IMG/VR virus record: IMGVR_UViG_3300020385_000010
Origin: an uncultured virus (IMG/VR IMGVR_UViG_3300020385_000010)
Taxonomy: Duplodnaviria > Heunggongvirae > Uroviricota > Caudoviricetes
Length of the DNA stretch: 64,000 nucleotides
Strand: one strand, 5' to 3'
Positions 15,168 to 38,229 of the stretch are shown in pieces. Under the pieces are notes generated by a model. The model was given only the letters and a program-made list of their open reading frames with translations. It ran no database searches and had not been told where the DNA came from. Numbering within the stretch: position 1 is the first letter of the stretch; each line of letters begins with the position of its first letter. Both the position numbers and the translations under genes were made by a program.

Positions 15168-15190
15168 ACATAAATAAATAAACAAATAAA

Positions 15191-15526
15191 ATGGCTAAAG
15201 GAGATTACACGAATTCAGATACTAGAAATAAGTATAAAAATTTAGTTAAAGAACAAAGTTTAACTAAAGTTACTGTTGCTTCTACTGAAAAAAGAGATAG
15301 AGCAGAGCTTTTAGATATGGTAGAAGAACTTTTTTACAATGGAAATCAAAATATTACAGCAGAAAAGTTAAGAGCTTTTTGTCATATTTTAATTAAATCA
15401 GTTCAAAATAGTTCTGATGACGCTATAACCTTAGATGCAAATACTGTTGCTGGTGGCTTACCTACTTCACGCCCTATTACTCGTGGTTTATTATGGAGCG
15501 ATAGAGGTACAGTTAAAGTTTCGTAA
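15191..15526 (+). CDS. Hypothetical virion/tail-associated protein
   Basis: 111 aa; C-terminal LPTSRP..GLLWSDRGTVKVS resembles phage fibre ends. Confidence 0.5.
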   Translation: MAKGDYTNSDTRNKYKNLVKEQSLTKVTVASTEKRDRAELLDMVEELFYNGNQNITAEKLRAFCHILIKSVQNSSDDAITLDANTVAGGLPTSRPITRGLLWSDRGTVKVS

Positions 15527-17112
15527 TGTCAGAGAAAATAGATATACAGATTGTCAATGAGCAGCCTACTTTATCCTTTAAAGATAGCAGTGTTGTTTTG
15601 TCATTAGAAGACTCTAGTAGTCCTTCTTTGGCTTTTACAAACTCTTCTGTTAACTTATCTATCGGAAACTCTATAGCACCTTCATTAGCATTAAATGGTG
15701 GCGCTACATCTATTAATCTGAGCGTTGGAAATTCTAGTAATGAAATTCAGTTAGTAGCTACTGGTACTCCAGGTCCTAAAGGTGCTGATGGAAGTGGTAG
15801 CGGAGGTGGCAGCTTAAACACAGAGGACGTACAAGACTTAGTTGGAGCTATGTTTACAGGAAATACTGAAACAAGAATATCTGTTGAGTATAAAGATGAA
15901 GACGGTACTATAGACCTTGTTGTAGATGATATGACTACTAATACTATTCCAGATGCTACTAATGTAGCTGCAGCAGGTGCTTTAATGAATTCTGAAGTAA
16001 CAAATTTAGCACAAGTAAAATCTTTTTCTTCTGCTAATTACGCTACTGCAGCACAAGGAGCTAAAGCAGATTCAGCACAGCAACCACCAAGTGAAGGTGT
16101 GTTTGAAAATGGAGATAAAAATAAATTAGATGGTATAGAGACAGGTGCAGAAGTTAATGTACAGAGTGATTGGAGTTCCTCAAGTGGAGACAACCAAATA
16201 CTTAATAAACCTGCTATACCTGTAGATTTAGATGATTTATCTGATGTAGATTTTAGTACTTCTTCACCTCAAGTTGACCAAGTCTTAATGTTTAATGGAA
16301 TTAAATTTGTAGCAGCAGACGAGGGAAGCACATTTGCTTTTGTTTGGAATAGTGTAGAGTATAACAATAACGCTAATGACATAACAGACACAACTACAGC
16401 TGGAAATATAGCTGATACTATATTAATTGGAAGTGGAAATCATATTACCAGTAGCTCAGTAACTTTAAATTTTCAAAATGCTGTAAGCTCAAAATTTACT
16501 TCTGGAGTGAATGGTTCTGACAACTTAGGGCTTTCAACACAAGCCTGGAGCGGAAGTATGACTAGTAGAGCTAATTTATCGTTTGACCAATCAAATCAAA
16601 GAGCGACAGCAAGCACAGGAACTATAAACCTACCTTTTCCTAGTAACTTAAGCAGTACTTCTTACAACAGAATTAAAGTAAGGTTTCAATATGATGGTAG
16701 CAATAAAAGCAATCAACTAAGTTATTCGTACAAAAATTACATGTACCTTGGAAAACATACTGACGACTCTCCAACAAATAGTGAGCTACAAAGTTTTCAA
16801 AAAAAATCTTTTATAGACAACGGTACGTCTAATACAGAAGATATATCAGCATTTGGTATTACTCTAAACGGCACAAGTCAACATCTTCAATTCTGGTACC
16901 CAGCTAGAATAACAAATAATACACCTTCGTTTCTGGTGGGGGAATCCTCTACGTCTTTAAGTGGGGAACCTTGGACCGTTATAGATAGTGGTAATACTAT
17001 TTCTCATATAAACTCAGCTGGTTTTACAGAACCATATAAAGGATGGAAAAGTCCAAACCCTTTAAGTAATTCAGGGGGAGTAAGCACTTGGTACGTACAA
17101 GTAATTTTTTAA
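15526..17112 (+). CDS. Tail fibre-like protein
   Basis: Short collagen-like GTPGPKG; EDVQDLVGAM, KLDGIETGAEVNVQSDW and LDDLSDVD fibre motifs. Confidence 0.7.
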   Translation: MSEKIDIQIVNEQPTLSFKDSSVVLSLEDSSSPSLAFTNSSVNLSIGNSIAPSLALNGGATSINLSVGNSSNEIQLVATGTPGPKGADGSGSGGGSLNTEDVQDLVGAMFTGNTETRISVEYKDEDGTIDLVVDDMTTNTIPDATNVAAAGALMNSEVTNLAQVKSFSSANYATAAQGAKADSAQQPPSEGVFENGDKNKLDGIETGAEVNVQSDWSSSSGDNQILNKPAIPVDLDDLSDVDFSTSSPQVDQVLMFNGIKFVAADEGSTFAFVWNSVEYNNNANDITDTTTAGNIADTILIGSGNHITSSSVTLNFQNAVSSKFTSGVNGSDNLGLSTQAWSGSMTSRANLSFDQSNQRATASTGTINLPFPSNLSSTSYNRIKVRFQYDGSNKSNQLSYSYKNYMYLGKHTDDSPTNSELQSFQKKSFIDNGTSNTEDISAFGITLNGTSQHLQFWYPARITNNTPSFLVGESSTSLSGEPWTVIDSGNTISHINSAGFTEPYKGWKSPNPLSNSGGVSTWYVQVIF

Positions 17113-17115
17113 TAT

Positions 17116-18009
17116 ATGCCTAAATTAAGTAGTGTAATAGAACAAGTATCTGGTGACTTTAAAATGGTTAAAGGTCAGGACGTTGATATTAATTCAGCTG
17201 AAGACTTTAATGATAACATAGTTGATGCAGATACAATATTAGTTGATGATGGAGACCTTGGAAGTAAATCTTCAACTAAGAAATCTACTATGAGTAGACT
17301 TTGGACTTACATCTTAGGAAAAATAACTTCTGTGTTTCTTGTAGATGAAGACAACATGTCTTCTAATTCTGACGTTAAGTTTCCAACACAACAGTCCGTA
17401 AAAGCATATGTTGACTCTAAACCTGACCTAACAGTAAATGGTGCAGGAACTATAGACGCTAATAATGTACCTACGTTGAATCAAGATACTACAGGTAATG
17501 CTGCAACAGCAGACGCTTTAACATCTGGTAGTAAAGTTATAACAGGAGGTTTATCTGTAACAACAGAGTTTTCTTCACCTAGAAGAAAATTTGTTAGAAC
17601 AGCTTCTGCAACTCATTTCGATGTTCAAGGAGATGTACTTTATTTTGGAAGTGGAAGTACAACTCAAGGAGACCTTTGCTACCTAAAAGAAGATGGGTCT
17701 TGGGGTCAAGCAGACGCTGATGGTGCAGCGGTAGGGGATGATGCAGATAGAGATGCAATGGGAATGCTAGCTATAGCTTTAGGAACAGACCCAGATATAA
17801 ATGGTATGCTAATTAAAGGTATAATTACTATGGCTTCAGATATGGGTGACGTAGGTAATCCTATTTATATTAAAACTACTGCTGGGGGTATGTCTCATGT
17901 TGCACCAGGTGCAAGTGGTGATTTTGTAAGGGTGGTTGGTTATTGCTTAGATGATAACAATGGTATAATGTATTTTAATCCTGATAATACTTGGGTAGAA
18001 ATAGCTTAA
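17116..18009 (+). CDS. Tail fibre or decoration protein
   Basis: DEDNMSSNSD.KFPTQQSVKAYVD and LNQDTTGNAATA fibre motifs; C-terminal cement-like domain. Confidence 0.65.
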   Translation: MPKLSSVIEQVSGDFKMVKGQDVDINSAEDFNDNIVDADTILVDDGDLGSKSSTKKSTMSRLWTYILGKITSVFLVDEDNMSSNSDVKFPTQQSVKAYVDSKPDLTVNGAGTIDANNVPTLNQDTTGNAATADALTSGSKVITGGLSVTTEFSSPRRKFVRTASATHFDVQGDVLYFGSGSTTQGDLCYLKEDGSWGQADADGAAVGDDADRDAMGMLAIALGTDPDINGMLIKGIITMASDMGDVGNPIYIKTTAGGMSHVAPGASGDFVRVVGYCLDDNNGIMYFNPDNTWVEIA

Positions 18010-18010
18010 C

Positions 18011-18571
18011 ATGGCATATAAAGACGAAACATTAGTATTTGAAAGTGATAAAGTTTATTACTCTATAGCAGGGGAAACTTTTGAGGTAATGATGGATTGG
18101 GAGTCTTCTATAATGGAGGCTTCTGCTAATTATGTATGCTCTAATGGAGGAGATATATTAGAAATAGGATTTGGTATGGGTATATCTGCGGATTATATTC
18201 AAGCTAATTCTATCAACTCTCATACTATTGTGGAATGTCATCCACAAGTATTAGAGAAAGCTAAAGATTGGGCTTTAGACAAACCTAACGTAACTATAGT
18301 AGAAGGTGAATGGTTTAATATAAAAAACTCTTTATCAACTTATGATGGAGTTTTTTATGATACATTTGGTGAGGAAGACTGGAGTTTATTTGGGAGTAAT
18401 ATAAAGTCGTTAGTTAAATCTAAAGCTAAAGTAACTTGGTGGAATAACAATCCTAGTGCAACTACGATTCATAATATTAGTGGAGTTGAGTATGAAATTA
18501 TAGATGTAAAACCTACGTCTAACAATTACTTTAATTCAAATAAATACTATTTACCTAAAAAAGAATATTAA
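18011..18571 (+). CDS. Class I SAM-dependent methyltransferase, GAMT/Rmt2-like
   Basis: VMMDWESSIM, motif I ILEIGFGMGIS, HTIVECHP and YDGVFYDTF. Confidence 0.8.
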   Translation: MAYKDETLVFESDKVYYSIAGETFEVMMDWESSIMEASANYVCSNGGDILEIGFGMGISADYIQANSINSHTIVECHPQVLEKAKDWALDKPNVTIVEGEWFNIKNSLSTYDGVFYDTFGEEDWSLFGSNIKSLVKSKAKVTWWNNNPSATTIHNISGVEYEIIDVKPTSNNYFNSNKYYLPKKEY

Positions 18572-19257
18572 TGCCTACTATATACGCAGCTACAACAGAT
18601 GGAGTTATTAACTCAGGTATTCAAAGTTCTTGGAGCAATGCTAGAGGTGCGACAACAGGTACTGTAAGTAATCCTAATGCAACTTTTATGTTTACAGCTT
18701 TAGGGGCGTCTATATTTTCAGGTAGAGGGGCAGTCACTTATAAAGTCTGGAGAAGTTTTTTTGATTTTGACACTTCTGCGATAACAAGCGCAATATCTTC
18801 AGCGACTTTAAAGTTATATTTTTCAAACAATGTAGGTAATGGTAATGCAATTGTTGTTCATAGTACCGCATTTACTGGTAGTAGTGGTACATTAGCTGCA
18901 GGCGATTTTAAAAATTTAGATTTTAACACTCCGTATTCAGGACAAATAGATACTTCGTCAACAGGATTAACTAGTATCACACTTAATGCTGCAGCGTTAT
19001 CATACATGCAGAATAACGATAAACTTAAAATTGCTGTAATAAACTATAAGTATGATTATGATAACCAATCACCTGCAAGTACAACTGGGCACCATGTAGG
19101 ATTAAGATATGCTAATTACACTGGGACAAGCTCAGACCCTCAAATAGATTATACAACATCTAGTTACGGTAATACAGTAGTAGGTGCGCCTGGTGGTGCT
19201 ATAAATAGAGTAAATGGAATATTAACATCAAGTATTAGTAAAGTAAACGGAATTTAA
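18571..19257 (+). CDS. Virion structural protein with a DNRLRE-like beta-sandwich domain
   Basis: RSFFDFDTSAI...ISSATLKLY...DPQI pattern; Ser/Thr/Gly-rich. Confidence 0.5.
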   Translation: MPTIYAATTDGVINSGIQSSWSNARGATTGTVSNPNATFMFTALGASIFSGRGAVTYKVWRSFFDFDTSAITSAISSATLKLYFSNNVGNGNAIVVHSTAFTGSSGTLAAGDFKNLDFNTPYSGQIDTSSTGLTSITLNAAALSYMQNNDKLKIAVINYKYDYDNQSPASTTGHHVGLRYANYTGTSSDPQIDYTTSSYGNTVVGAPGGAINRVNGILTSSISKVNGI

Positions 19258-19267
19258 ACATTATATA

Positions 19268-19684
19268 ATGGCAACTACAATTTACACAGACATAGCAAAG
19301 AACGTAGACATTGTTTCTCGAAAGAGTGATTCATTTGTTCTTAAGCTAACCATTACAGACTCAGCTAATGCTGCGTTTAATTTAACTAGCTATACAGCTA
19401 AGTTTTATATTAAAGACTCTAGCAATACAATTGTAGCTGGTGCTCAAACAGGTACTACATCTAACGATAAAATACAAGACGACGATACTCCTATACATGG
19501 TATTTCTGTAGATGGAAGTACAGGAGCTTTAGACACAACAGGAATATTGTACGTGACTATACAATCAGGTTTGATGGGTATAGACAAGGGTACATATAAA
19601 TATGATTTAGAGCTTACAAGTAGTAGCTCAATAGTAACAACATGGATGTATGGTAAAATTAAAATTGTAGAAGATGTATCTTAG
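19268..19684 (+). CDS. Ig-like (BppU-type) tail adaptor protein
   Basis: DSFVLKLTITD..FNLTSYTA...GTYKYDLEL...GKIKIVEDVS. Confidence 0.6.
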   Translation: MATTIYTDIAKNVDIVSRKSDSFVLKLTITDSANAAFNLTSYTAKFYIKDSSNTIVAGAQTGTTSNDKIQDDDTPIHGISVDGSTGALDTTGILYVTIQSGLMGIDKGTYKYDLELTSSSSIVTTWMYGKIKIVEDVS

Positions 19685-19823
19685 CGAAGACAAAAATTCA
19701 GAAGAAAAGAATAAAGAAATTGCAAGACAACAATGGGAGTCTTGGATTGTAGATTTAGAAGAACAAGAACAGCCAGATGCTTGCGGTATAGATGATGACG
19801 ACTGCGAAGCTTGTGGTTCATAA
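19674..19823 (+). CDS. 49-aa acidic micro-protein ending ACGIDDDDCEACGS (not in the ORF track)
   Basis: Hand translation MYLSEDKNSEEKNKEIARQQWESWIVDLEEQEQPDACGIDDDDCEACGS; it fills the gap between neighbouring genes. Confidence 0.7.
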   Translation: MYLSEDKNSEEKNKEIARQQWESWIVDLEEQEQPDACGIDDDDCEACGS

Positions 19824-19833
19824 ATAGTAAGTA

Positions 19834-20046
19834 ATGAAAATATTTAAAGACGATAATAATTGGAACGAAAAAGCTATAGTAGGTTTTATAGCTTTTGCAG
19901 TTATGTGTATGATTATGATTGCTGACCTTGTTACAGGCTGGGTAGGTACAGATTTAGTAATTAACGAGTTTGTTTATGACTCTTTTGTTTGGGTTGTTCT
20001 AGGGTGCTTTGGCATTTCTGGCGTAGAAAAATTTGCTAAGAAATGA
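19834..20046 (+). CDS. Small two-TM membrane protein (holin-like)
   Basis: Two hydrophobic stretches and a basic C-terminus (EKFAKK). Confidence 0.55.
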   Translation: MKIFKDDNNWNEKAIVGFIAFAVMCMIMIADLVTGWVGTDLVINEFVYDSFVWVVLGCFGISGVEKFAKK

Positions 20047-22283
20047 AAAGAATACTTTATATACTATTACTTTCTGGTCTGACATCTAACGCTCAAGATA
20101 GCGTGTTTGTTGACTGCATAGGAACTGAAGCTCCAATTAATTGGTTAGGTGATGGTTATTGTGATAATGGTGCGTATACATGGAACGGTAGTGCTATTAA
20201 TTTTAACTGCGAAGAGTTTGGTTATGACGCAGGAGATTGCCCTTTACCTATAGATACAGTTTATGGTTGTATAAATATGTTAGCATTAAACTATGTTCCT
20301 GAAGCAACAATTGATGATGGTTCATGCGAGTTTCCTGTATTTGGATGTACAGACCCAGAGGCTCCTAACTTCAACCCTTGGGCGCAAGCAGATGATAACA
20401 GCTGTGTTGGTGTAAGCTGTTCTGACGGTGAAGCTAAAATGATTTTAGAACTTACGTTAGACCAATACCCTAGCGAAACGGGGTGGATATTAACAGACAT
20501 AACTACAGGACAACCTGTAGATAATGTAGTGGCAGGAGAGTATTCTTATGAGCAATCTAATCAAACTATTATATACGACTTATGTGTACCTGAAACTGGT
20601 GTAGAACTTATATTAAGTGATATATACGGTGATGGTTTAGAGGGTTCTTTATATAACAGCACAGATGGAGGCTTTGTAATGCTTGGAGACGCAGAGCCTT
20701 GTGGTAGCTTAGATACGTTATGGGTATTAGAAGACGCTGCCTTTGGTAGTGCTGCATACTCAGGACCTATATGGTTACAACAGTGCGATATACCTGCACT
20801 TGAAGGATGCACTAACAACTCTTATATAGAGTTTAATCCAGATGCAAACTTTGATGACGGTTCTTGCGAAACATTACATACATTAGGGTGTATAGACGAA
20901 AATGCTTTTAATTACAACCTAAACGCTACATTAAACGAGGTTATACCTGTCTGCGAGTACACTCTTATTATAGAGGATGACGCAGCTGATGGTTGGGGAG
21001 ATTGTTATATAGGGATAGCGCAAGAAGACAGCATACTTGGGACATATACAATGGGACCAGGAGAATATTCACAACAGTTTGACATAACATTATATACAGA
21101 TAAACCAGTTAAGGTTTATTATTTTGAAATAGCTAGCTCACAAACTCCCCCTGCAGAAGTCGCTTTCCAGACTATGCACAATTCATTTAGACTTATTAAC
21201 TCATCAGGTGACATAACGCTACAAGGCGGGATGTATCCATTTGCTGATAATGGAGTTGGAGCTTTACAAGCTTATGCACCACCTTTTTGGCATGTGTACC
21301 ATAGTATTCCTTATTGCGGAGATTATTGTGTACCAAAAGTATATGGGTGTACGGATGAACAATCTTTAAACTACGATGCAACAGCAAATACCAATGATGG
21401 TGGCTGTATAGACGTTATACAAGGTTGTACCGCACCCTTCGCATTTAACTACGACTCTATCGCAAATGTTGACGATGGAAGTTGTGTCGCTATAATATAT
21501 GGTTGTATGGACTCTAGCGCTTGGAATTACAATCCTTTTGCTAATACTGCAGAAGAATCTTGCCTACACTTTGGTTGTATGGATTTATTAGCTGATAACT
21601 ATGACCCTATAGCTAATGTAGAGCTTGAAGGAGCTTGTTTTACAACAGTTCTTGGTTGCACTGACCCAGAAGCTTTTAATTATAATATAGACGCTAACAC
21701 AGAGGATTTTAGTTGTATTCCTTTTATTTATGGATGCATGGATTCTACAGCGTTTAATTATGATGCAAATGCAAACGCAGGAGCAGAATGTGAAATGATT
21801 GTAGAAGGGTGTATGAACACTGATGCGTACAACTATGACGCATTTGCTAATACAGATGCTGAGTGTTTATACGATGCAGGTTGTATTGATGGGCCTGGTA
21901 TACCATATTGGCTAAACGATACATGTTATGCTTGGGTAATTATGGTAGACCCTTTTTGCTGTAACAACGAGTGGGATGAAAAATGTCAGCAACTATATTG
22001 GTCTTGCAGCTCAGATAGTGAGTTAGACACTAGAGATTTGTTAAGAGGACATAATGTAGTTATATATCCTGTTCCAGCTAAAGACTTATTAAACATATTA
22101 ACTAACGGTAAGTTTAGTGCAATTGTATATAATTCGTTAGGAAAGATTGTAATTAAAATTAAAGAAAGCCAAACTCAAGAAGGGTTAAATCAGCTAGATG
22201 TAAGTCTTTTAGAATCAGGTGTATACTATTTTAGCGTAACATATGATGGAGTTACAACTACTAAAAGCGTATTAAAGAGATGA
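20043..22283 (+). CDS. Secreted Cys-rich repeat protein with a T9SS type A C-terminal sorting domain
   Basis: Signal peptide ending SNA-Q; an LNR-like WLGDGYCD...GDC motif; about 11 GCx[D/N]xxAxN[Y/F] repeats; C-terminal IYPVPAKD...IVYNSLGK...LDVSLLESGVYY...TKSVLKR. Confidence 0.85.
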   Translation: MKRILYILLLSGLTSNAQDSVFVDCIGTEAPINWLGDGYCDNGAYTWNGSAINFNCEEFGYDAGDCPLPIDTVYGCINMLALNYVPEATIDDGSCEFPVFGCTDPEAPNFNPWAQADDNSCVGVSCSDGEAKMILELTLDQYPSETGWILTDITTGQPVDNVVAGEYSYEQSNQTIIYDLCVPETGVELILSDIYGDGLEGSLYNSTDGGFVMLGDAEPCGSLDTLWVLEDAAFGSAAYSGPIWLQQCDIPALEGCTNNSYIEFNPDANFDDGSCETLHTLGCIDENAFNYNLNATLNEVIPVCEYTLIIEDDAADGWGDCYIGIAQEDSILGTYTMGPGEYSQQFDITLYTDKPVKVYYFEIASSQTPPAEVAFQTMHNSFRLINSSGDITLQGGMYPFADNGVGALQAYAPPFWHVYHSIPYCGDYCVPKVYGCTDEQSLNYDATANTNDGGCIDVIQGCTAPFAFNYDSIANVDDGSCVAIIYGCMDSSAWNYNPFANTAEESCLHFGCMDLLADNYDPIANVELEGACFTTVLGCTDPEAFNYNIDANTEDFSCIPFIYGCMDSTAFNYDANANAGAECEMIVEGCMNTDAYNYDAFANTDAECLYDAGCIDGPGIPYWLNDTCYAWVIMVDPFCCNNEWDEKCQQLYWSCSSDSELDTRDLLRGHNVVIYPVPAKDLLNILTNGKFSAIVYNSLGKIVIKIKESQTQEGLNQLDVSLLESGVYYFSVTYDGVTTTKSVLKR

Positions 22284-23377
22284 AAAGATTATTAAAAAAA
22301 GTTACGCCTGCAATAGCTTATATGTTTTTTTGGTTAGGTATGGCTGTAGCGTGGACTATATTATTTATACTTATATCAACTAATAGTAGCGCACAAGGGT
22401 TACATAAAATATTTAAGTATTCTACTGTATATACTGCAGTAAATGGAGGTACGTCATTAAGTGATAATCAAATCTGGTCTGTAACATCTGGAGCTTTAGA
22501 AGAAAACATTATACAAACTCCCTTTGATTATACTTTATCCATAGGTATTAGAAAAATAAAACGATTTGGATATGAGAACAGAGCCAACACTTTTTATAAT
22601 GGTACGGAAAATTCTTACTCAGATGCCGCTACAATTGGTAGAGTTGATGGTTTTGAATATTTATTTGAAGCTGACTTTGTAAGGCGTTTAGGTATTAACT
22701 ACACTAATCAACATCATTTTGTAAGATATGTTGCTGACAAGTGGGTTAGTAAAGTAGAGTATTTAGAAGATGGATTTGCAGACATAAAATACTTTGAAGC
22801 ATCAGAGAGGTTTAGATTAAAAGTAAGGGCTGGCAAGCTTTCGCTTAACGGGGGTTTAGTTCAAAGACTTGCCGAACCTTACGGTTTTGACCCCTTAGCA
22901 GACTGGGTATTAGATAACGGTACTTTACATTATACATACCTAGCTCTGCAAGAAGGGTACAACATCACTCTAGGGGGAGAGTATTTTTCTCCTGACGGAC
23001 AGCTTGTAGCTAACAGCCAAGAGGTATGGGAAGAGGTTGTAATACCTGAAGTTATAAATAATTATGTAGAAAAACAAAGAAACTCTATAAAAAATATAGT
23101 AGAATATTCTTTTGTATTAGGGTTTGATTATTATCATTTTACAAAAGATTTTTGGTTACATAGCTGGGGTAATGTTATGCCATACCACGTAAACACTAGG
23201 AGTGCGTACTCATACTACGAATTTAATGAAGGTCAATGGGTTGACTACTCAGGTGGGTTAATCTTTGGGTATAAGTTTAACAAAAGTTTAGGTATATTTG
23301 TAGAGGGTAAGTACAATAAATACTGGAATAGAAAATGGCACAACTTTAGTGTAGGTTTTAATTATGTAATATTTTAA
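22280..23377 (+). CDS. Putative outer-membrane beta-barrel protein
   Basis: Signal peptide ending SSA-Q; alternating aromatic beta strands; C-terminal BAM-type signature FSVGFNYVIF. Confidence 0.65.
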   Translation: MKRLLKKVTPAIAYMFFWLGMAVAWTILFILISTNSSAQGLHKIFKYSTVYTAVNGGTSLSDNQIWSVTSGALEENIIQTPFDYTLSIGIRKIKRFGYENRANTFYNGTENSYSDAATIGRVDGFEYLFEADFVRRLGINYTNQHHFVRYVADKWVSKVEYLEDGFADIKYFEASERFRLKVRAGKLSLNGGLVQRLAEPYGFDPLADWVLDNGTLHYTYLALQEGYNITLGGEYFSPDGQLVANSQEVWEEVVIPEVINNYVEKQRNSIKNIVEYSFVLGFDYYHFTKDFWLHSWGNVMPYHVNTRSAYSYYEFNEGQWVDYSGGLIFGYKFNKSLGIFVEGKYNKYWNRKWHNFSVGFNYVIF

Positions 23378-23380
23378 AAA

Positions 23381-23665
23381 ATGACAAAAGAATTAAGTGA
23401 AGAAACATCTTTTAATATAAGCTTAAAAACATTAGCTGGAATAGCAGTTCTTATATTTACCCTAGTAGGTATGTGGTTTACTCTTCAAAATGATATAGCA
23501 GAAGCTAAAGAATTACCTCTCCCTCTCGACCCTGAGATTACACGCATGGAGTATGACATGAAAGACCAGTTAATTCGCCAAACAATTATGTCTACACAAG
23601 ACGATGTTAAAGAAATAAAAACACAAATGCTGAGGATGGAAGATAAGATTGACCAATTAAAATAA
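23381..23665 (+). CDS. Single-TM protein with C-terminal coiled coil
   Basis: TM LAGIAVLIFTLVGMWF, then a heptad-rich tail. Confidence 0.6.
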   Translation: MTKELSEETSFNISLKTLAGIAVLIFTLVGMWFTLQNDIAEAKELPLPLDPEITRMEYDMKDQLIRQTIMSTQDDVKEIKTQMLRMEDKIDQLK

Positions 23666-23669
23666 GGTT

Positions 23670-24011
23670 ATGAAAAAAATAATTAGTATATTCCTGCTGT
23701 TTTTATCAACAAACGTTTGTTCACAAGATTTCCCTAGCGGGTTACATGTAGTAGAATTTAATGCTAGTTTTAATTCTGCAAACGCAATAGCTTGGTTGCC
23801 TAAGCTTACAGATTGCGAAACACAGCGTGTTGATATAGCAGCTGACTCAAGATGGGCAAGCGAATATAAAATAGTAGTAGTACCTACATTAGTTGTATTT
23901 AATAACAACGAAGAGATTAAAAGATTTCAAGCCAACATTATGATGACTATGGAGGCTACTAAAAAAGAAGTACAAGAGTCTATAGATGGTATAATAATGG
24001 AAGCATTTTAA
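23670..24011 (+). CDS. Exported thioredoxin-fold protein lacking CxxC
   Basis: Signal peptide; VVEFNASFN, RVDI, YKIVVVPTLVVFNNNEEIKRF thioredoxin pattern. Confidence 0.7.
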   Translation: MKKIISIFLLFLSTNVCSQDFPSGLHVVEFNASFNSANAIAWLPKLTDCETQRVDIAADSRWASEYKIVVVPTLVVFNNNEEIKRFQANIMMTMEATKKEVQESIDGIIMEAF

Positions 24012-24014
24012 TAA

Positions 24015-24482
24015 ATGAGACTAAGTAAGAATTTTACGTTATCAGAAGTTACTAGAAGTAACACTGCTAAAAGATTAAGTATAGATAATACTCCAAAGAA
24101 CGCTCACTTAAAAAGTATGCAGCGTCTTATAACTAATCTTATACAACCTATGCGTGATGAGATTGGCCCTATTAGGATTACATCAGGTTATCGTAGCCCA
24201 GAATTGAATCGTGCTATAGGAGGAAGTAAAAAATCACAACATAGTAAAGCTGAAGCTGTTGACATACAGTTTTGGTCTAAAGGTCAAATGGATAACAAAG
24301 TTATTTATGATTGGGTTATTAAATCTAATATAGAATTTGACCAAATGATAAATGAATTTGACTTTGCTTGGATACATATATCATTAAAAGAAAAAAATAA
24401 TAGAAAAGAAATATTAGAAGCATATAAAGATAAAGATGGTGATACCTCTTATAGATATGCTGATACATATACTACACTATGA
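24015..24482 (+). CDS. Peptidase M15 family endolysin
   Basis: ITSGYRSPELNRAIGG..SQHSKAEAVD...WIHIS zinc ligands. Confidence 0.9.
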   Translation: MRLSKNFTLSEVTRSNTAKRLSIDNTPKNAHLKSMQRLITNLIQPMRDEIGPIRITSGYRSPELNRAIGGSKKSQHSKAEAVDIQFWSKGQMDNKVIYDWVIKSNIEFDQMINEFDFAWIHISLKEKNNRKEILEAYKDKDGDTSYRYADTYTTL

Positions 24483-24865
24483 GTAAATTATTAAACTTTT
24501 TAGGTGGAGGAGTTGTTAAGCAGGTCGGTGATGTGCTTGATAATTTAACTACATCTAAAGAAGAAAAACTAGAAGCTCAACGTAAGATAAAAGAAGTTCT
24601 TATGCAAGCCGAATCTCAGGCACAACAAGAAGTCACAAAGCGATGGGAAGCTGACATGAAGTCTGATAACTGGCTTTCTAAGAACATAAGACCTTTAATT
24701 TGTATATTCTTAACGGCAATGTTTGTTGTTATATCTATATTTGATGGAAATGCAGGGGGTTTCAAAATAGCTCCAGCATATGTTCCGATTTATCAAACAC
24801 TTTTAATAACTGTATATGGAGCTTACTTTGCTGGAAGGTCTATAGAAAAGATTAGAAAGAAGTGA
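24479..24865 (+). CDS. Holin, 3TM (GTA-type) family
   Basis: RWEADMKSDNWLSKNIRP...YFAGRSIEK. Confidence 0.8.
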   Translation: MSKLLNFLGGGVVKQVGDVLDNLTTSKEEKLEAQRKIKEVLMQAESQAQQEVTKRWEADMKSDNWLSKNIRPLICIFLTAMFVVISIFDGNAGGFKIAPAYVPIYQTLLITVYGAYFAGRSIEKIRKK

Positions 24866-25242
24866 TTGAATACTTAATTATACATTCTACAGGAACAGAG
24901 AAAGAATATGTGCCTGAGAAAAAAGAATATAATTTAAGCGTATCTTGCGATATAGTCCACTTTAATGGACAGCTTTCAAGGTACAAAGCGGAGTCAGAGC
25001 ACCCATCTAGTAACGAGACTTACAAGCATATAGCATACATAGGTGGCAAACTTGATGGCAAAGCATCTGATACCGCTACCTGGAAGCAATACGATAGCCT
25101 AGAGCACGTAGTGATGTATCACCTACTATATAATCAAAATTTAAAAGTAGGATGTTCATCACTTTTTTTTGATACCTCAGCAGGGATAGATGTAAGAAAG
25201 TGGTTAGAAGATATAGGAGTTAATTTAAAAAATATAATGTAA
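24862..25242 (+). CDS. Degenerate N-acetylmuramoyl-L-alanine amidase-like protein
   Basis: IEYLIIHST, HIAYIGG and T.KQYDSL resemble T7-lysozyme-type amidases; later catalytic motifs look eroded. Confidence 0.5.
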   Translation: MIEYLIIHSTGTEKEYVPEKKEYNLSVSCDIVHFNGQLSRYKAESEHPSSNETYKHIAYIGGKLDGKASDTATWKQYDSLEHVVMYHLLYNQNLKVGCSSLFFDTSAGIDVRKWLEDIGVNLKNIM

Positions 25243-25388
25243 TGCGAAGACTAGAAATAGGTTTATATACAGGTATTCTTTTTGGTTTTAGAACTTTTGA
25301 GCCATCTGAGACTCACCCATACTGGGAGCACCATTTTTACCTACCTCTTTTTTATTTTGCTTTTTTATTTGAACCAAAAGAACTTTAG
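25242..25388 (+). CDS. 48-aa hypothetical protein (not in the ORF track)
   Basis: MRRLEIGLYTGILFGFRTF...YLPLFYFAFLFEPKEL; overlaps the previous stop (TAATG). Confidence 0.55.
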   Translation: MRRLEIGLYTGILFGFRTFEPSETHPYWEHHFYLPLFYFAFLFEPKEL

Positions 25389-25390
25389 TA

Positions 25391-25669
25391 ATGGCAAGAA
25401 ATACATTAGCTGGAAAAAGTAAAGGTAAAAGCAAAAGCGCAAAGTACTACGCTGCAAATCCTGAGGCTAAAAAAAAGAAACAGGCTTACGATAAAGCATA
25501 TCATTCTACACCTGAGCGTAAAAAGTATAGAGCTAAGCTAAACAAAGCTAACAGAAAGGCTAAGACTTACGGAAATAAAGACGGTAAAGATATGTCTCAC
25601 ACTAAAAAAGGTAAGTTAGTAAAAGAAAAGCAATCTAAAAATAGAGCAAGAAATCGTGGAAAAAAATGA
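25391..25669 (+). CDS. Small basic protein, remotely HNH-like
   Basis: Lys/Arg-rich; GKDMSH...SKNRARN. Confidence 0.55.
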   Translation: MARNTLAGKSKGKSKSAKYYAANPEAKKKKQAYDKAYHSTPERKKYRAKLNKANRKAKTYGNKDGKDMSHTKKGKLVKEKQSKNRARNRGKK

Positions 25670-26966
25670 TAAAATCAGGGAGTACTTAATAAACATGCCT
25701 GAAAAGCTTCGGAAAGATTATTCTGAAACTGCAAAAAAGTTTGATAGTACATACGAACAAGTAAGAAGTATTGCAAGACGCTTAAGATTGCAATTTGAAA
25801 ATCAATTTGAAATAAGTCAAAACTCATCTATTAATGATGAGAAAATAACTAAGAATGAACAAAAAGATTCTTTAGTTATTTCTGTTGAAGACAGTAAAAG
25901 AGTTAAATCTCTTGATGACCTTATAAAAAACTGCAGTGTAGATTTAGATACCTGGGAAGTTGATTGGTTTGATATAGGTACATATGAAGTTACGGGGTTT
26001 GATAACGACAGGAAGCCTGTTACCGTAACAATGTATAGAACTAAAGCTAAGTTTAAGAAGATTAACATCTGGGAAAATTTAACTAAATTAAGGGAAGATT
26101 TAAAACAAGACTTATTCGAAACTTTTTCATCCTATGCATTTAAACCTACTTTTAAAAATAATACAAAAGATGAAGAAGGATATTTGCTTGAAATTGGGGC
26201 ATACGACTTGCATCTTGGTAAGTTGGGCATTGACGGTGATGATTATTCTCTTGATGTGGCTAGGACTAGGCTTCACAATGCTATTGATTCCCTTTTTCAC
26301 AGAGCGAGAGGATTCAAAATCGAAGAAATAGTATTTGTAGTAGGTAATGATTTCTTAAATATAGATAAAGCTAATCCATTTGCTTCTACTACTAAAGGTA
26401 CGCCACAAAACAATTCTGTTTCTGCTTATGACGCTTATAGGTATGGTAGAAAGTTGCTAGTTGAATGTATCAATATGCTCTCTTCTCTTGCTCCTGTTCG
26501 GGTTGTCGTAATCCCAGGTAATCATGATGAGGAATCTATGCTACATATGGGTGATGCACTAGAAGCTATATACGAAAAAACAGAGCACATAACTGTAGAC
26601 AACAGCAGACCTTTAATGAAAGGATATGTATACGGAGAGTGCTTACTTATATTCGACCACGGACATAGAGTAAAGAACTATAAGAATTTAGCCTCTGTAA
26701 TCTCTCAACGCTTTCGTGAGGTATGGAGTAAAGTAAAACACATTGAAGTCCATAGAGGACACCTACATAGCCTTAAAACGAATATTATGGGACAAGTAGA
26801 AGAACTCAATGGTATTGCAGTAAGGCACTTAGGAAGTATGTCACCTACTGACCAATGGCATGATGATAGTGGATATATATCTTCACATAAGAGAGCACAT
26901 GCATTTATATGGCACAAGACTAAAGGAATGCAGTGCGAGTACTACTACAACGTACCTATTAAATAA
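25656..26966 (+). CDS. Calcineurin-like metallophosphoesterase with N-terminal HTH-like region
   Basis: DLHLG, GNDF, GNHD, HGH and GHLH motifs; GTG start. Confidence 0.85.
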   Translation: MEKNDKIREYLINMPEKLRKDYSETAKKFDSTYEQVRSIARRLRLQFENQFEISQNSSINDEKITKNEQKDSLVISVEDSKRVKSLDDLIKNCSVDLDTWEVDWFDIGTYEVTGFDNDRKPVTVTMYRTKAKFKKINIWENLTKLREDLKQDLFETFSSYAFKPTFKNNTKDEEGYLLEIGAYDLHLGKLGIDGDDYSLDVARTRLHNAIDSLFHRARGFKIEEIVFVVGNDFLNIDKANPFASTTKGTPQNNSVSAYDAYRYGRKLLVECINMLSSLAPVRVVVIPGNHDEESMLHMGDALEAIYEKTEHITVDNSRPLMKGYVYGECLLIFDHGHRVKNYKNLASVISQRFREVWSKVKHIEVHRGHLHSLKTNIMGQVEELNGIAVRHLGSMSPTDQWHDDSGYISSHKRAHAFIWHKTKGMQCEYYYNVPIK

Positions 26967-26992
26967 CTACTGTGCATTGCTTATGGGTAAAC

Positions 26993-27020
26993 AAAAAGCT
27001 ACTTGCGTAGCCTCTTATTT
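26993..27020. terminator. Short hairpin at the convergence of the two arms
   Basis: GCTAC-TTGC-GTAGC flanked by AAAA and CTCTTATTT. Confidence 0.4.
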
Positions 27021-27327
27021 AGTTTACAGTTTCTAAGGCAGACTCTTCTTTACCTGCTTTCTTCATTTCGTTTTGAAAATTCTGAAACTCCATGTAAGCG
27101 TTATATACATGCTCTACATTTGCTTCTTTATCTATCCACTTAGTGAACTCAATACATTGGTCTAAAGCAAAGTTATATCTAAACGCTTCTATCATTAAAC
27201 TGAAAGCCATTTTCTGCTCATCAGTAAATTTCATAACCGTATCGTTGTATATCTTTTGGCACTTATTATAATGTGCTTCTCGCTCTTTCTGAGCTTTAGT
27301 TAGCGATTCTTTCTTAGACTTACTCAT
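27019..27327 (-). CDS. Hypothetical protein
   Basis: 102-aa ORF in the minus-strand operon. Confidence 0.6.
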   Translation of the reverse strand: MSKSKKESLTKAQKEREAHYNKCQKIYNDTVMKFTDEQKMAFSLMIEAFRYNFALDQCIEFTKWIDKEANVEHVYNAYMEFQNFQNEMKKAGKEESALETVN

Positions 27328-27460
27328 ATCTTATTCTTTTTTTTAGGGCGTCCAGGCTTACGTTTATTCTGTACTTTAGCTTTAGATACCTTTTTACTAC
27401 TCTTAGGGACTTCCCTTTTCTTACAGCATTCTGTACTGCGGTTTTTATTATTCCTTTCAT
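27320..27460 (-). CDS. Small basic helical protein in an overlapping frame
   Basis: MKGIIKTAVQNAVRKGKSLRVVKRYLKLKYRINVSLDALKKRIRYE; HTH-like periodicity. Confidence 0.45.
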   Translation of the reverse strand: MKGIIKTAVQNAVRKGKSLRVVKRYLKLKYRINVSLDALKKRIRYE

Positions 27461-27545
27461 TTTCTTTTTTAATGTTGCTATACACTGCATATTCATAATA
27501 AGCGTATGCACCTATAACTATTACTACTAATAAAACAAATTCCAT
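27324..27545 (-). CDS. Small membrane-anchored basic protein with AT-hook-like KRKPGRPKK
   Basis: N-terminal hydrophobic helix, A-rich leader, ATGA coupling to the next gene. Confidence 0.55.
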   Translation of the reverse strand: MEFVLLVVIVIGAYAYYEYAVYSNIKKENERNNKNRSTECCKKREVPKSSKKVSKAKVQNKRKPGRPKKKNKI

Positions 27546-27563
27546 AATTTTGGTTTTTTAAAA

Positions 27564-27849
27564 GTATTAGGGGGGTTGCATGGACGACCAAATCTCAACT
27601 TCCCCCCCGAATACAAGAACAACCTAGCCCATATTGCTTAAAGCTAGGATTTAGCATATGTAGCACTCACGCAGCCCACTCTCGTATGTTGTGCAGCACT
27701 CACGTAGCTTGCTCACGTATTATACTCTCTGAAAACATTTAAATTCCAAAAACTCTTAATAAGTAAAAACAGAGAGTTCGACCAAGCTGATTTAAACATG
27801 TAGCACACGTACTACGCTTGGTCTATAGAGTTGTAACCGACTTGTTACA
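27564..27849 (-). ncRNA. Candidate structured RNA or leader
   Basis: Five consecutive hairpins plus a 33-nt tandem repeat in a gene-free 300-nt gap; strand assumed from the flanking genes. Confidence 0.5.
27655..27720. repeat. Two-copy 33-nt tandem repeat
   Basis: catatgtagcactcacgcagcccactctcgtat / gttgtgcagcactcacgtagcttgctcacgtat, 24/33 identical; a partial third copy lies near 27786-27810. Confidence 0.7.
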
Positions 27850-27851
27850 TA

Positions 27852-28148
27852 TTAAGAGTTAGGTCGTAACTCCTCTTCAAATCTATCATTAGTGTATCCA
27901 CACTGTGCAATTGGTGCAACATCTATAACTTTTATTTCGCATCCTTCTCTTTTTTGATGCTCTTTTTTAAGCCTGTTAAGCATGCTACTATTATATGCAG
28001 GGTTGTTTAACAGCTCTATGCTGTCTCCTATACTTACTTCCCTGCTGCTATGCACCTCGCATTTCTCTTTCAAGACGGTCTGCCCTCGTCTCTTTCCGTA
28101 GTACCTCACTTGGTACTTTATTAGGTTGAAGAATATTGGCATTTTCAT
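27852..28148 (-). CDS. Hypothetical protein
   Basis: 98-aa ORF. Confidence 0.55.
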   Translation of the reverse strand: MKMPIFFNLIKYQVRYYGKRRGQTVLKEKCEVHSSREVSIGDSIELLNNPAYNSSMLNRLKKEHQKREGCEIKVIDVAPIAQCGYTNDRFEEELRPNS

Positions 28149-28629
28149 ATTGAAATAATTTAATGTTTTTAAATATAACGCTATATATGTTTTCTACTCT
28201 AGTGGACTTAGCTCTGTTATGAGATACTGCAGTTTCTAACATATCTCTGGTTTTAAATAACTCAGGTATGCATTCTTCATCTACACATTTTTTAAGTACA
28301 CTTATGTAGTCATCATACATACTGTCGTTTATATAATGGTATCCATGTATAACTGTAGCGTGGTCTCTTTTAGTTAACAAACCTATAGCTTCTAATGTTA
28401 AAGTAGTTTTAGTTCTTAATGCGTAGTGTAGAAGATGTCTAGCTAAAACGTTCTGTCTTTTTCTAGACTTTAACATTTCTTCCTTTTCTACTCCCATTAA
28501 ATCTTCGACTAATTTAAAACATATTTTTTTATATTTACTATTATTATGGTTTTCTAATGAAACTCTTGCCATTCTTTGTTCAAAAGTTTCTCTTGACCTT
28601 ACGTAATTTTTTTCTTTATTTCTTTTCAT
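28048..28629 (-). CDS. DnaA domain IV (C-terminal HTH)-containing protein
   Basis: SRKRQNVLARH...TLEAIG...RDHATVIHG is the DnaA_C signature; no AAA+ domain. Confidence 0.8.
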   Translation of the reverse strand: MKRNKEKNYVRSRETFEQRMARVSLENHNNSKYKKICFKLVEDLMGVEKEEMLKSRKRQNVLARHLLHYALRTKTTLTLEAIGLLTKRDHATVIHGYHYINDSMYDDYISVLKKCVDEECIPELFKTRDMLETAVSHNRAKSTRVENIYSVIFKNIKLFQYENANILQPNKVPSEVLRKETRADRLEREMRGA

Positions 28630-28990
28630 AATCCCCTGATTCTATTAACCGTCCTTGTTTTGCACCAAAGTATAACCAAGCTGTGTATTGCTTGTCGTCT
28701 ACTAATACAGGTACTCTTTTTCTTCTGTAAAATACTGGATGACCTTCTAACATATCTAAGTCTTCTTTTGTTGCAGAGTTTACCTCATACAACTCTCCTA
28801 TAACTTGATGTATTTTTTCATCTTCATACAAGAAAGGTATGCTGGTATGATACAGTGCATACTTTTCTTTAGTTTTACCTAGACCTATCTTTCTTGATTT
28901 ACGAATTAAAGAGTGGTTGTGATGACCACTCCTTAATGTTCCGTAAACAAATACAAGTTCTCTTCGTTTAAACTTAGTTATATCTCGCAT
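28616..28990 (-). CDS. Gamma-glutamylcyclotransferase (AIG2-like)
   Basis: VFVYGTLR, GELYEV, LDMLEG.P..YRR, AWLY. Confidence 0.9.
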   Translation of the reverse strand: MRDITKFKRRELVFVYGTLRSGHHNHSLIRKSRKIGLGKTKEKYALYHTSIPFLYEDEKIHQVIGELYEVNSATKEDLDMLEGHPVFYRRKRVPVLVDDKQYTAWLYFGAKQGRLIESGDYEKK

Positions 28991-29781
28991 ATCCCTCCAT
29001 AGTTAGCTTCACATTCTGAAGGCTTAGCGTTAATACATTTTTTATAATCAGATAGACCAACGCTAAAACTTATTCGGCCCTTGTCAAGAGATGTTCTACT
29101 AAGTTTATATATACCTACAGACATAGGTCCGTTCTTACTAACAGCTATAAAGTAAAAGTCTTTCATACCTGTACCGTGTAAATAGAATGCTGCTTGCTGG
29201 TATATGTTATACTTCTCAGCAAACTCTACAAACGATTCTTTATCAGTGTTTTGCATTGTCTTGACATCTACTATGTACCCGTCTTTTTCATTTATGTAAT
29301 CTATCTTAGCTTTACATAATGTTTCGTGTACTATATTTCTCCAGAAAAATATCTTTTCTGCCTCACCTCCTGATAAAAGATTCATCGCCCCTTCATGTCT
29401 TAATAAAGCTGCGTGCATAGCAGTAATTTTATTATACTGATTGGTTGTAAGTATTTCTTTTTCTCCATGCTGTTCAGCAAACTCTGCATACATTTCTTTG
29501 CCTGCCTTTGTTCGCTTGTCTACGCTAGGTGCTACAGCATACCTGCCATCAAACTCTTCGTTCTCTAACACTAAACAATGAAACGCTGAACCTATAAGGA
29601 ACGCTTCGCTTGTTGGTGTTTCTCCGTCTAGATAATAAAAGAATTCTTTAGGACATTTCTTCATTGCTACCTTAAGCATTGAGTTGGTTGCATACTTCCT
29701 GTCTGCAAAGTATGTATCATCGTTGTATATATAACTATCCTCTAAAGGTTCTACCTCTCTGCTTCCTTTTATTTGTATCAT
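28978..29781 (-). CDS. PD-(D/E)XK exonuclease, RecE/Exo VIII (DUF3799)-like
   Basis: GSAFHCLVLE, CKAKID, IVDVKT, YQQAAFY. Confidence 0.85.
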   Translation of the reverse strand: MIQIKGSREVEPLEDSYIYNDDTYFADRKYATNSMLKVAMKKCPKEFFYYLDGETPTSEAFLIGSAFHCLVLENEEFDGRYAVAPSVDKRTKAGKEMYAEFAEQHGEKEILTTNQYNKITAMHAALLRHEGAMNLLSGGEAEKIFFWRNIVHETLCKAKIDYINEKDGYIVDVKTMQNTDKESFVEFAEKYNIYQQAAFYLHGTGMKDFYFIAVSKNGPMSVGIYKLSRTSLDKGRISFSVGLSDYKKCINAKPSECEANYGGICEI

Positions 29782-30011
29782 AACAATGTGTATTTAGCTA
29801 CTGTTGTTTGTTTACGGCTACCGTCTTTGTTTGTCCAACGTGTTGCCACTTGTGCGTTTTCTGTTTGTATATTATGCCCCTCTTCTTTAAGGATGAATAT
29901 ACTTGCTGATAATCTAGTGTTACCTAAATCTCTTATTGCTTCTAAGGATGTAATACTTTTGTATTCCTTAAGGTATTCTAGTAACCTACTTTTATGTGTT
30001 TGTCTAGCCAT
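29778..30011 (-). CDS. Winged HTH protein
   Basis: ITSLEAIRDLGNTRLSASIFILKEEGHNI. Confidence 0.75.
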   Translation of the reverse strand: MARQTHKSRLLEYLKEYKSITSLEAIRDLGNTRLSASIFILKEEGHNIQTENAQVATRWTNKDGSRKQTTVAKYTLL

Positions 30012-38084: not shown

Positions 38085-38227
38085 AACTTTAAAGTATTAT
38101 CAATTGCTTTCTTTAAATCATCTATATCCTTGTTGTTTCCAACGCGTTCTTCAAGCTTGTCTATAGCTTGAGATAATTCTTGTGCAAATTCTGAATCTGC
38201 ACAGAGTATAAGTAGTTTTTCCATCAT
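38063..38227 (-). CDS. 54-aa hypothetical protein (not in the ORF track)
   Basis: MMEKLLILCADSEFAQELSQAIDKLEERV...; fills the gap between the GATase and the ligase. Confidence 0.5.
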   Translation of the reverse strand: MMEKLLILCADSEFAQELSQAIDKLEERVGNNKDIDDLKKAIDNTLKLCQNVTH

Positions 38228-38229
38228 AA

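Follow-up and report, generated by a model that had tools for sequence, protein, structure and literature searches.

We know of no described route by which phages of Bacteroidota pass through the outer membrane (OM) of their hosts at lysis. The spanin survey of Kongari et al. (2018; PMC6139136) lists 91 of 677 phages in which no spanin was found, Bacteroides and Croceibacter phages among them. Phage proteins that carry a type IX secretion system (T9SS) sorting domain are also already in print: de Jonge et al. (2019; PMC6949934) report open reading frames (ORFs) of this kind on contigs of crAss-like gut phages, and Bellas et al. (2020; PMC7468147) report them, with a type A domain, among the variable genes found in "Cryophage". 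Here we analyzed a stretch of 64,000 nucleotides from an uncultured virus (IMG/VR IMGVR_UViG_3300020385_000010), referred to below as the window. At 19674-24865 it holds a block of genes encoding a 746-amino-acid (aa) protein with a T9SS sorting domain (the cargo), a predicted OM beta-barrel (the barrel), a 94-aa protein with one transmembrane segment (the TM protein) and a 113-aa exported protein of predicted thioredoxin fold (the Trx protein), followed by an endolysin and a holin. We call the barrel, the TM protein and the Trx protein the trio. The reading that we put forward, tentatively, is that the trio is an envelope-spanning set acting at OM disruption, and that the cargo is a separate, T9SS-exported and fast-evolving surface or secreted protein.

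With the lambda Rz/Rz1-type spanins, as these are outlined in print, the trio shares a small, putative inner-membrane protein with an N-terminal transmembrane segment and a helical part predicted to be periplasmic, an OM partner, and a place beside holin and endolysin; a further likeness to the spanin setting is that the trio-bearing phage offers no other candidate for OM disruption. In contrast to two-component spanins, the OM partner is a 365-aa beta-barrel and not a short lipoprotein, no lipobox is present, and a third, predicted periplasmic protein of thioredoxin fold always accompanies the other two. No sequence similarity between the trio and spanin families was found, nor was any description of the trio found in the literature, subscription journals lying outside the coverage of the search.

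The case for treating the trio as a unit comes from its distribution. A collection of viral contigs contained 186 stretches bearing the barrel, of which the best 80 were examined (close loci). Barrel, TM protein and Trx protein were each present in 80/80 of these, the cargo in 78/80 (both misses falling at contig ends), an M15 endolysin in 67/80 and the holin in 62/80. Spacing was equally constant, the gap between the barrel and TM genes being 13 nucleotides (nt) or less in 79/80 loci and that between the Trx and M15 genes 22 nt or less in 59/67 (all loci that have the M15 gene). This conservation over 80 viral loci lifts the gene set far above chance. A distant clade, reached through a 35%-identical barrel, comprised 96 stretches, and the best 80 were again examined (distant loci). 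Here the barrel, about 33% identical, was found in 80/80, the TM protein in 70/80 and the Trx protein in 65/80, several of the misses for the latter two falling at locus ends, and cargo-like tblastn matches were found in only 5/80, in each case some 5 kb upstream of the barrel.

We also assembled a whole-genome set from 80 terminase relatives, 16 of which were on contigs of at least 32 kb and 10 of which had an estimated completeness of at least 94%. Barrel, TM and Trx genes occurred together in the same nine of these near-complete genomes, and the tenth (G015) had none of them. An ORF matching Por_Secre_tail was found in only one of the ten. Where a tagged cargo was seen, it was upstream of the barrel in L083 (50.2 bits) and downstream of the trio in L081 (29.7 bits) and L079; none was found among the upstream genes of L084 and L085. 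Because the trio was found in nine of ten genomes and a sorting-domain ORF in one, and because the position of the cargo varies, the trio appears to be the conserved unit and the cargo a frequent but facultative, strain-variable neighbor, so that the block is best described as two linked but separable modules. This distribution does not support the single surface complex of four exported proteins that an initial annotation of the window had proposed. The co-occurrence in other phages that the same annotation had pointed to as a check was found for the trio, which is all-or-none; the cargo accompanies it in 78/80 close loci but in only one of the ten near-complete genomes is there any sorting-domain ORF.

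As far as the genomes compared can tell, the trio is restricted to phages. Among 185,579 prokaryotic species genomes, one for each species, only seven loci matched, all of them on contigs of metagenome-assembled genomes labeled Alphaproteobacteria, Thaumarchaeota or Flavobacteriales. The two longest of these contigs carried phage-type neighbors (helicase, ribonucleotide reductase, QueC/QueE and endolysin), and the seven matches are most simply read as mis-binned phage contigs. Cultured-phage records, a collection that may not include the window's own record, gave no DNA match to the region or its parts and no protein match to the barrel. The record nearest to the window (G001) is without this region.

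The second line of evidence is the position of the trio next to the lysis genes. In the window, the Trx gene lies 3 nt from the endolysin gene, which itself overlaps the holin gene. Phages of Nonlabens and Vibrio have homologues of this protein that bear the annotation holin. The endolysin beside the trio changes in type, from M15 in the window to a PG_binding_1 plus Amidase_2 protein in L083, where it comes directly after the Trx gene; because of this change, the trio appears to be linked to lysis rather than to one enzyme. The holin was present in 10/10 near-complete genomes and, in 9/9 trio carriers, it was downstream of the trio and on the same strand, six of these carriers having 1-1.4 kb between Trx gene and holin. 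To look for spanins, we scanned all ORFs of at least 30 aa in the six frames of the whole window with a permissive lipobox pattern. None matched (0 ORFs), and the window thus holds no candidate o-spanin or u-spanin, in agreement with the initial remark that no canonical spanin pair is visible. Overall, these data favor a lysis-linked role for the trio.

Three of the proteins encoded beside the lysis genes deserve a separate description, beginning with the barrel. An AlphaFold2 model built from a 25-row alignment showed about 14 strands, with a predicted local distance difference test score (pLDDT) of 73.8 and a predicted template modeling (TM) score of 0.65. The best VIA-align matches were 4pr7_A (Z 13.4, root mean square deviation [rmsd] 4.1, 164 residues aligned), 3kvn_A (Z 13.2) and 2wjr_A (Z 12.8), and named matches included KdgM (Z 13.4), the beta-domain of EstA (13.2), NanC (12.8) and LpxR (11.8). 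All 54 Foldseek matches at E≤0.001 were OM barrels, and so were the nearest named Atlas clusters among the language-model neighbors (scores 0.92-0.93). PorV ranked below these generic barrels (6h3i_F, Z 7.0; 8gl6_F, E 7.4e-4). At the sequence level, no Pfam or NCBIfam family, including those of PorV and PorP/SprF, matched at E≤0.1, no PHROG family was found, and 0/25 aligned barrel members matched any Pfam family. The family is large in sequence collections: at E≤1e-3 the barrel has 3682 relatives in a set of proteins clustered at 90% identity, and 322 in a set clustered at 50%. The 120 matches listed from the former bore no labels except those of their source (metagenome or NCBI), and none was named for a function.

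The leader of the barrel ends SSA-Q, and the model includes a helical insertion (residues 205-269) and a conserved loop of low confidence (94-122). Conserved polar residues line one face of the strands. The beta-signal is a C-terminal motif that ends in an aromatic residue; the barrel ends FNYVIF, with G359 invariant and N361 at least 90% conserved, and the last aligned position was F or Y in 14/25 aligned members by our own count. According to the model, the protein is an OM beta-barrel of the type inserted by the beta-barrel assembly machinery (BAM), as had been initially read from its C terminus, and its fold and its matches to solved OM barrels bear this out.

Since porins are among these matches, we considered whether the three genes might be morons unrelated to lysis, for example a phage porin that boosts nutrient uptake, or another change of the envelope during a long infection. 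That the best structural matches are the small substrate-specific porins KdgM, NanC and Tsx, and that one complete relative manages without the trio, would both suit such a role. We nonetheless consider it highly unlikely, given that the trio is found where the late structural operon ends, next to holin and endolysin, and not among early genes, and that a plain porin would have no need of an all-or-none linkage with inner-membrane and periplasmic partners.

The TM protein has a short N terminus, a single hydrophobic segment (residues 10-36) and a conserved helical part of about 58 residues, whose alignment shows a heptad-like conserved tail; its only family match was a weak one to phrog_12220 (E 0.007). 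The Trx protein scored 19.8 bits against the Pfam family Thioredoxin (PF00085), below the curated cut-off of 23.5 bits, whereas 5/5 scanned homologues from the distant clade, which align with it over its whole length, scored 29.4-37.4 bits. No CxxC motif was found in 12 aligned members (0/12). The active-site cysteines are replaced (WAxWNxxN or FNASFN), while the cis-Pro loop (VPT) is kept, with P72 and T73 invariant in the 12 members. The protein thus appears to be a redox-dead thioredoxin fold, in line with the "CxxC-less thioredoxin" of the initial annotation. It shares fold and cis-Pro loop with the thioredoxins of PF00085, but both active-site cysteines are replaced and the protein is predicted to be exported to the periplasm and to be found in phages only.

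Several candidates concerning these two proteins were rejected. The leader of the Trx protein ends VCS-Q, but its cysteine is not conserved across homologues, and the protein is therefore not a lipoprotein. Of two apparent fusions, a 217-aa read-through of TM and Trx genes on a 701-bp contig keeps the internal leader and looks like the loss of a stop codon, and a Trx form with the N terminus of a TonB receptor looks like a chimera. A coil protein encoded beside the homologous holin in a Vibrio phage was not significantly related to the TM protein (E 0.08), and no lipoprotein ORF was found embedded in its gene. Complex prediction for the barrel (residues 40-365) and the TM protein (36-94) with the Trx protein (20-113) gave 0.01 and 0.02 against a mark of 0.32; it was run without controls and speaks neither for nor against a complex.

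In thioredoxins, the cis-Pro loop is a peptide-binding site. Its invariance in a protein that has lost the redox cysteines raises the possibility that the barrel alone is the effector, either as a pore that makes the OM leak or as an enzyme cleaving lipids or lipopolysaccharide (LPS), with the TM protein and the dead Trx fold serving as targeting or folding helpers. The conserved polar residues on one face of the barrel strands, together with the presence of LpxR, a 12-strand enzyme, among the good structural matches, are compatible with this. The structural matches, however, fail to separate enzymes from porins, and nothing indicates that host chaperones would be insufficient; we regard this explanation as improbable.

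We return to our preferred reading, in which all three proteins act together. The barrel would be inserted into the OM, presumably by the host BAM, the 94-aa protein would have its anchor in the inner membrane and extend its conserved helix into the periplasm, and the redox-dead thioredoxin fold would be periplasmic. Made together with holin and endolysin, the three would form an envelope-spanning set that destabilizes the OM in the final stage of lysis, after cleavage of the wall, in place of the missing spanin. If so, spanin-less ocean phages of Bacteroidota would possess a lipoprotein-free, three-part lysis machine and hence a third class of OM disruptor beside spanins and disruptin, coupled in some lineages to a T9SS-exported, fast-evolving surface protein; this wider proposal we consider possible but doubtful.

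A number of observations weigh against such a lysis device. In 3/9 trio carriers, 5-7 kb separate the holin from the Trx gene, and in part of the distant clade the holin is on the other strand. G015, a 61.6-kb genome with terminal repeats and 100% completeness, lacks all three trio genes as well as the M15 endolysin. It keeps the holin, after an exonuclease gene, and its likely lysin is a phrog_1501 protein with an H...GC motif. Inspection by eye of the surroundings of this holin found no lipoprotein or transmembrane coiled-coil substitute. Since this genome is complete without the trio, the trio would be dispensable for this phage or replaced by something unseen, and G015 offers a natural comparator for phages that carry the trio. 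With respect to mechanism, the membrane-fusion model of spanins relies on a lipid anchor and is at odds with an anchor in the form of a beta-barrel, a periplasmic part of about 58 residues appears short for the 94-aa protein to bridge the periplasm alone, and, again in contrast to two-component spanins, the alignments of the 94-aa and Trx-fold proteins contain no conserved periplasmic cysteine. Finally, the overlap of the barrel and cargo genes in 78/80 close loci and the second secreted, acidic and cysteine-rich neighbor described below would fit surface display equally well, and the RNA cover reported below was alike over gene blocks of both strands.

The cargo was identified by its C-terminal domain (CTD). 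Residues 674-741 scored 42.8 bits against Por_Secre_tail (PF18962; curated cut-off 27 bits), and the protein scored 35.4 bits against TIGR04183 (cut-off 23 bits), the type A sorting domain as a whole spanning residues 674-745. The AlphaFold2 model of the cargo had a mean pLDDT of 63.8, with 80-88 in the CTD blocks, and the modeled CTD matched 8glk_D (TM score 0.77, rmsd 2.5), 8qb1_A (TM score 0.68) and 7pq4 (TM score 0.62), each with a probability of 1.00. It superposes with 8glk_D, a substrate CTD bound in a T9SS complex. The type A CTD named in the initial annotation, and the profile searches suggested there as a check, were thus both borne out. All complete homologues scanned (39/39) carried the sorting domain, at 27 bits or more in 37/39.

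Glutamine at +1 after the signal peptide is a habit of Bacteroidota. The cargo leader ends SNA-Q, and 44/46 unique N termini of cargo homologues showed a hydrophobic leader ending in a small residue and Q. From hydrophobicity and conservation, we predict an N-terminal Sec leader. As initially noted, the same type of ending is found in three proteins of the block, in each of which a variable hydrophobic N terminus ends with a small residue and Q before conservation starts. The cargo would thus be made late, cross the inner membrane through Sec by means of its leader and, its type A CTD being recognized by the host T9SS, end up on or outside the cell; these signals point to secretion by the host machinery.

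The passenger has no relatives of known function. A strict pattern detected 10 cysteine repeats of the NY type and an 11th, degenerate copy at residues 255-275 was recognized by eye in the translation, in keeping with the "about 11" acidic, cysteine-rich repeats initially counted. The protein contains 39 Cys, 15.0% D+E and 2.4% K+R, and two beta-sandwich domains are included in the modeled passenger. No family in Pfam, NCBIfam or PHROGs matched the passenger, a sequence search of the PDB matched only the CTD, and weakly (E 0.028), an Atlas search returned only unnamed viral clusters (scores 0.85-0.89), and the middle domains of the model gave only structural matches of low TM score from which no function could be read. 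UniProt automatically names viral relatives of the cargo as sorting-domain proteins.

The cargo is also variable. Complete homologues range from 710 to 1114 aa, and across the close loci the cargo had a median identity to the window of 62.5%, against 74.5% (Trx protein), 80.9% (TM protein) and 82.7% (barrel). In DNA run X3, which contains this phage, the assembly shattered into five short, loose-ended contigs over 20520-23152, coinciding exactly with the cargo gene and the beginning of the barrel gene, while the flanks assembled as single contigs of 6.5 kb and 4.5 kb. The break identifies 20520-23152 as a strain-variable island. Because the cargo is acidic, rich in disulfide-type repeats and variable both in length and between strains, its features suggest an exposed coat, an adhesin or a receptor-masking protein.

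Compared with the T9SS cargo of Cryophage and of crAss-like gut phages, as far as the published accounts describe it, the cargo of the window is alike in its type A domain, which is peculiar to hosts of Bacteroidota type, in being encoded by a strain-variable gene and in the presumed hijack of the host T9SS. It differs in its acidic, cysteine-repeat passenger, which belongs to no known family and is not a glycoside hydrolase, PA14 or BACON protein as in those accounts, in its conservation across a large marine clade in which every complete homologue scanned is tagged, and in sharing an operon with an OM barrel and lysis genes. The initial statement that T9SS cargo is normally host-encoded still holds, with the reservation that phage cases had already been published (PMC6949934; PMC7468147).

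We also asked whether the cargo could be a fiber or decoration protein of the virion whose sorting-domain-like end is merely an Ig-like fold. Its gene comes after the tail-fiber genes, its cysteine repeats match a cyanophage gene with the annotation virion structural protein (56% identity over 43 residues, E 3e-5), and matches in BFVD include crAss-like structural proteins, at low TM scores. The Sec-type leader conserved in nearly all unique N termini disfavors this assignment, because it would remove the protein from the cytoplasm, where virions assemble, and the agreement of the CTD with two curated profiles and with solved T9SS structures argues in the same direction. We judge a virion role very improbable, and the least likely of the explanations considered here.

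A stronger competitor is that all four exported proteins make up a single structure that the phage builds on the cell surface, in which the barrel anchors and displays the cargo, and which serves in receptor masking, superinfection exclusion, or adhesion of infected cells and debris. Proteins with a type B CTD pair with PorP/SprF-like barrels, and PorV is a shuttle. The window resembles these type B systems in that a barrel gene comes immediately after the cargo gene, the stop codon of the latter overlapping the start of the former, and a cargo with a cognate barrel recalls this pairing. The range of cargo lengths and the assembly break at the gene are what one would expect if diversifying pressure acts on an exposed protein. 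In addition, in six distant loci that were inspected, the barrel is followed at some distance by a secreted protein of 182-305 aa with an LDL-receptor-A-like cysteine motif and acidic repeats, that is, by another secreted, acidic and cysteine-rich protein. This protein, however, shows no detectable CTD; a shortened CTD was considered and rejected, since Pfam found none and hhalign against the CTD profile gave a probability of 0.3%. The window further differs from type B systems in that its sorting domain is of type A and its barrel is present in genomes without tagged cargo: 8/9 near-complete trio-bearing genomes lacked any sorting-domain ORF. The downstream position of the cargo in L079 and L081 also speaks against a single structure, as does the closer relation of the barrel to generic 12-14-strand barrels (Z 13) than to PorV, and a role in exclusion fits poorly with late expression in a probably lytic phage. 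We therefore consider one joint surface structure unlikely, although less so than the barrel-only and porin explanations above. Regarding the initial claim that the phage uses host T9SS and BAM to build its own surface complex, the signals for both routes are present and their use may be inferred, but the single complex is unsupported in view of the cargo-less trio genomes.

Expression was assessed in RNA libraries. In library X7, contigs of at least 99% identity were found in 30/30 bins over 14000-30000, one of them bridging the junction between the barrel and TM protein genes. Because cover was alike on the genes of both strands, DNA carry-over is possible. Library X21 gave no match and X22 only two short contigs. 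One RNA contig (27337-27805, minus strand) carried 17 T before 27337, corresponding to a poly(A)-like tail on a minus-strand RNA; the tail lies inside the minus-strand ORF 27324-27545, 13 nt short of its stop-codon end (27324). This hints that at least some of the library cover is real RNA.

The window as a whole is that of a phage, with terminase, portal, major head protein and giant virion proteins, and with a replication block on the opposite strand. Its GC content is 31-39%, and no tRNA genes were found in it. Because its terminase is closest to those of crAss-like phages of Bacteroides and of Cellulophaga phages (27-29% identity), we assign it, from this comparison, to a distant marine crAss-like phage, and a host among the Bacteroidota is part of the best explanation. 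The block sits at the end of the structural operon, downstream of tail-fiber genes (15526-18009, phrog tail-fiber matches), and consists of eight tightly packed ORFs, all on the plus strand (Table 1). Overlaps of 4 nt of the ATGA type occur at 20043/20046, 22280/22283 and 24479/24482, and the remaining gaps are 3-10 nt, so that coordinates, overlaps and lysis-gene matches agree with the initial picture of packed genes running into endolysin and holin. Promoter-like sites numbered 31 against 52 expected, with a sigma-70 consensus that is unsuited to this host and phage, and terminator-like sites 6 against 5.1 expected.

Table 1. Genes of the block and the ORF that follows it, with the basis of each assignment
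Feature	Coordinates	Strand	Basis
49-aa acidic ORF with C-terminal Cys cluster	19674..19823	+	No family above cut-off (Pfam, NCBIfam, PHROGs)
70-aa protein, two predicted transmembrane segments	19834..20046	+	Hydropathy segments 11-43, 46-64
746-aa predicted secreted cargo, type A T9SS sorting domain	20043..22283	+	Por_Secre_tail and TIGR04183
365-aa predicted OM beta-barrel, phage-only family	22280..23377	+	AlphaFold2 model, structural matches
94-aa predicted inner-membrane protein, single transmembrane segment	23381..23665	+	Hydropathy, conservation
113-aa predicted exported thioredoxin fold without CxxC	23670..24011	+	PF00085 via homologues
M15 peptidase endolysin, 155 aa	24015..24482	+	Peptidase_M15_3, 62.5 bits; phrog_894, 2e-37
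Holin, 128 aa	24479..24865	+	phrog_3427, 7.6e-29; GTA_holin_3TM, 32.2 bits (cut-off 24.8)
126-aa ORF overlapping the end of the holin gene	24862..25242	+	Weak amidase match phrog_822, E 0.0017

Among the smaller genes, the 49-aa ORF had tblastn matches in just 4/80 close loci; it is poorly conserved and probably outside the module. The 70-aa protein was found in 49/80 close and 44/80 distant loci, at 69-94% identity and in varying positions within the module, and matched no PHROG or Pfam family; its identity stays in this range even in the clade whose barrel is only about 33% identical. With the size of a holin or antiholin, it may act as an antiholin, a pinholin or an additional holin. In 18/80 close loci (for example L004, 9379-9681, and L063, 9331-9633), the TM and Trx genes are separated by an additional gene for a 100-aa protein, exported or membrane-bound. 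It matches phrog_29588 and also phrog_26616, "lipoprotein" (E 1.9e-8), yet is without a lipobox cysteine, and a shorter relative is encoded near the lysin of the trio-less G015 (L263, 981-1223). Downstream of the holin, the 126-aa ORF, present in 5/80 close loci, is a possible second lysis protein. It is followed at 25391-25669 by a gene for an extremely basic, Lys-rich protein of 92 aa, and either this protein or the weakly amidase-like ORF might also contribute to lysis. According to a preprint (10.1101/515445), spanins have a known alternative in cationic peptides.

Other features of the window include giant ORFs of 3376, 1434 and 1867 aa (2-10132, 10863-15167 and 57063-62666) in the structural module, two of which match virion-structural PHROGs and which are in the size range of the giant virion-borne proteins of crAss-like phages. 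The minus strand at 36654-39204 has two adjacent genes, one amidoligase-like (phrog_2443) and one resembling glutamine amidotransferases (phrog_4736), and among the tail-fiber genes, at 18011-18571, there is a methyltransferase-like gene (Methyltransf_25, E 1e-4, below cut-off). These three are possible nucleotide or DNA modification genes.

Taken together, the trio is a concrete, clonable candidate for the OM step in phages of Bacteroidota, and it is very common in marine viral DNA. If it is a true lysis device, it would represent a new mechanism and provide an annotation marker for thousands of ocean phage genomes; if it is instead part of a surface system, lytic phages would remodel the envelope of their host late in infection. 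The cargo, for its part, would add a large and conserved case of phage proteins being directed by the phage itself to the type IX secretion system of the host.

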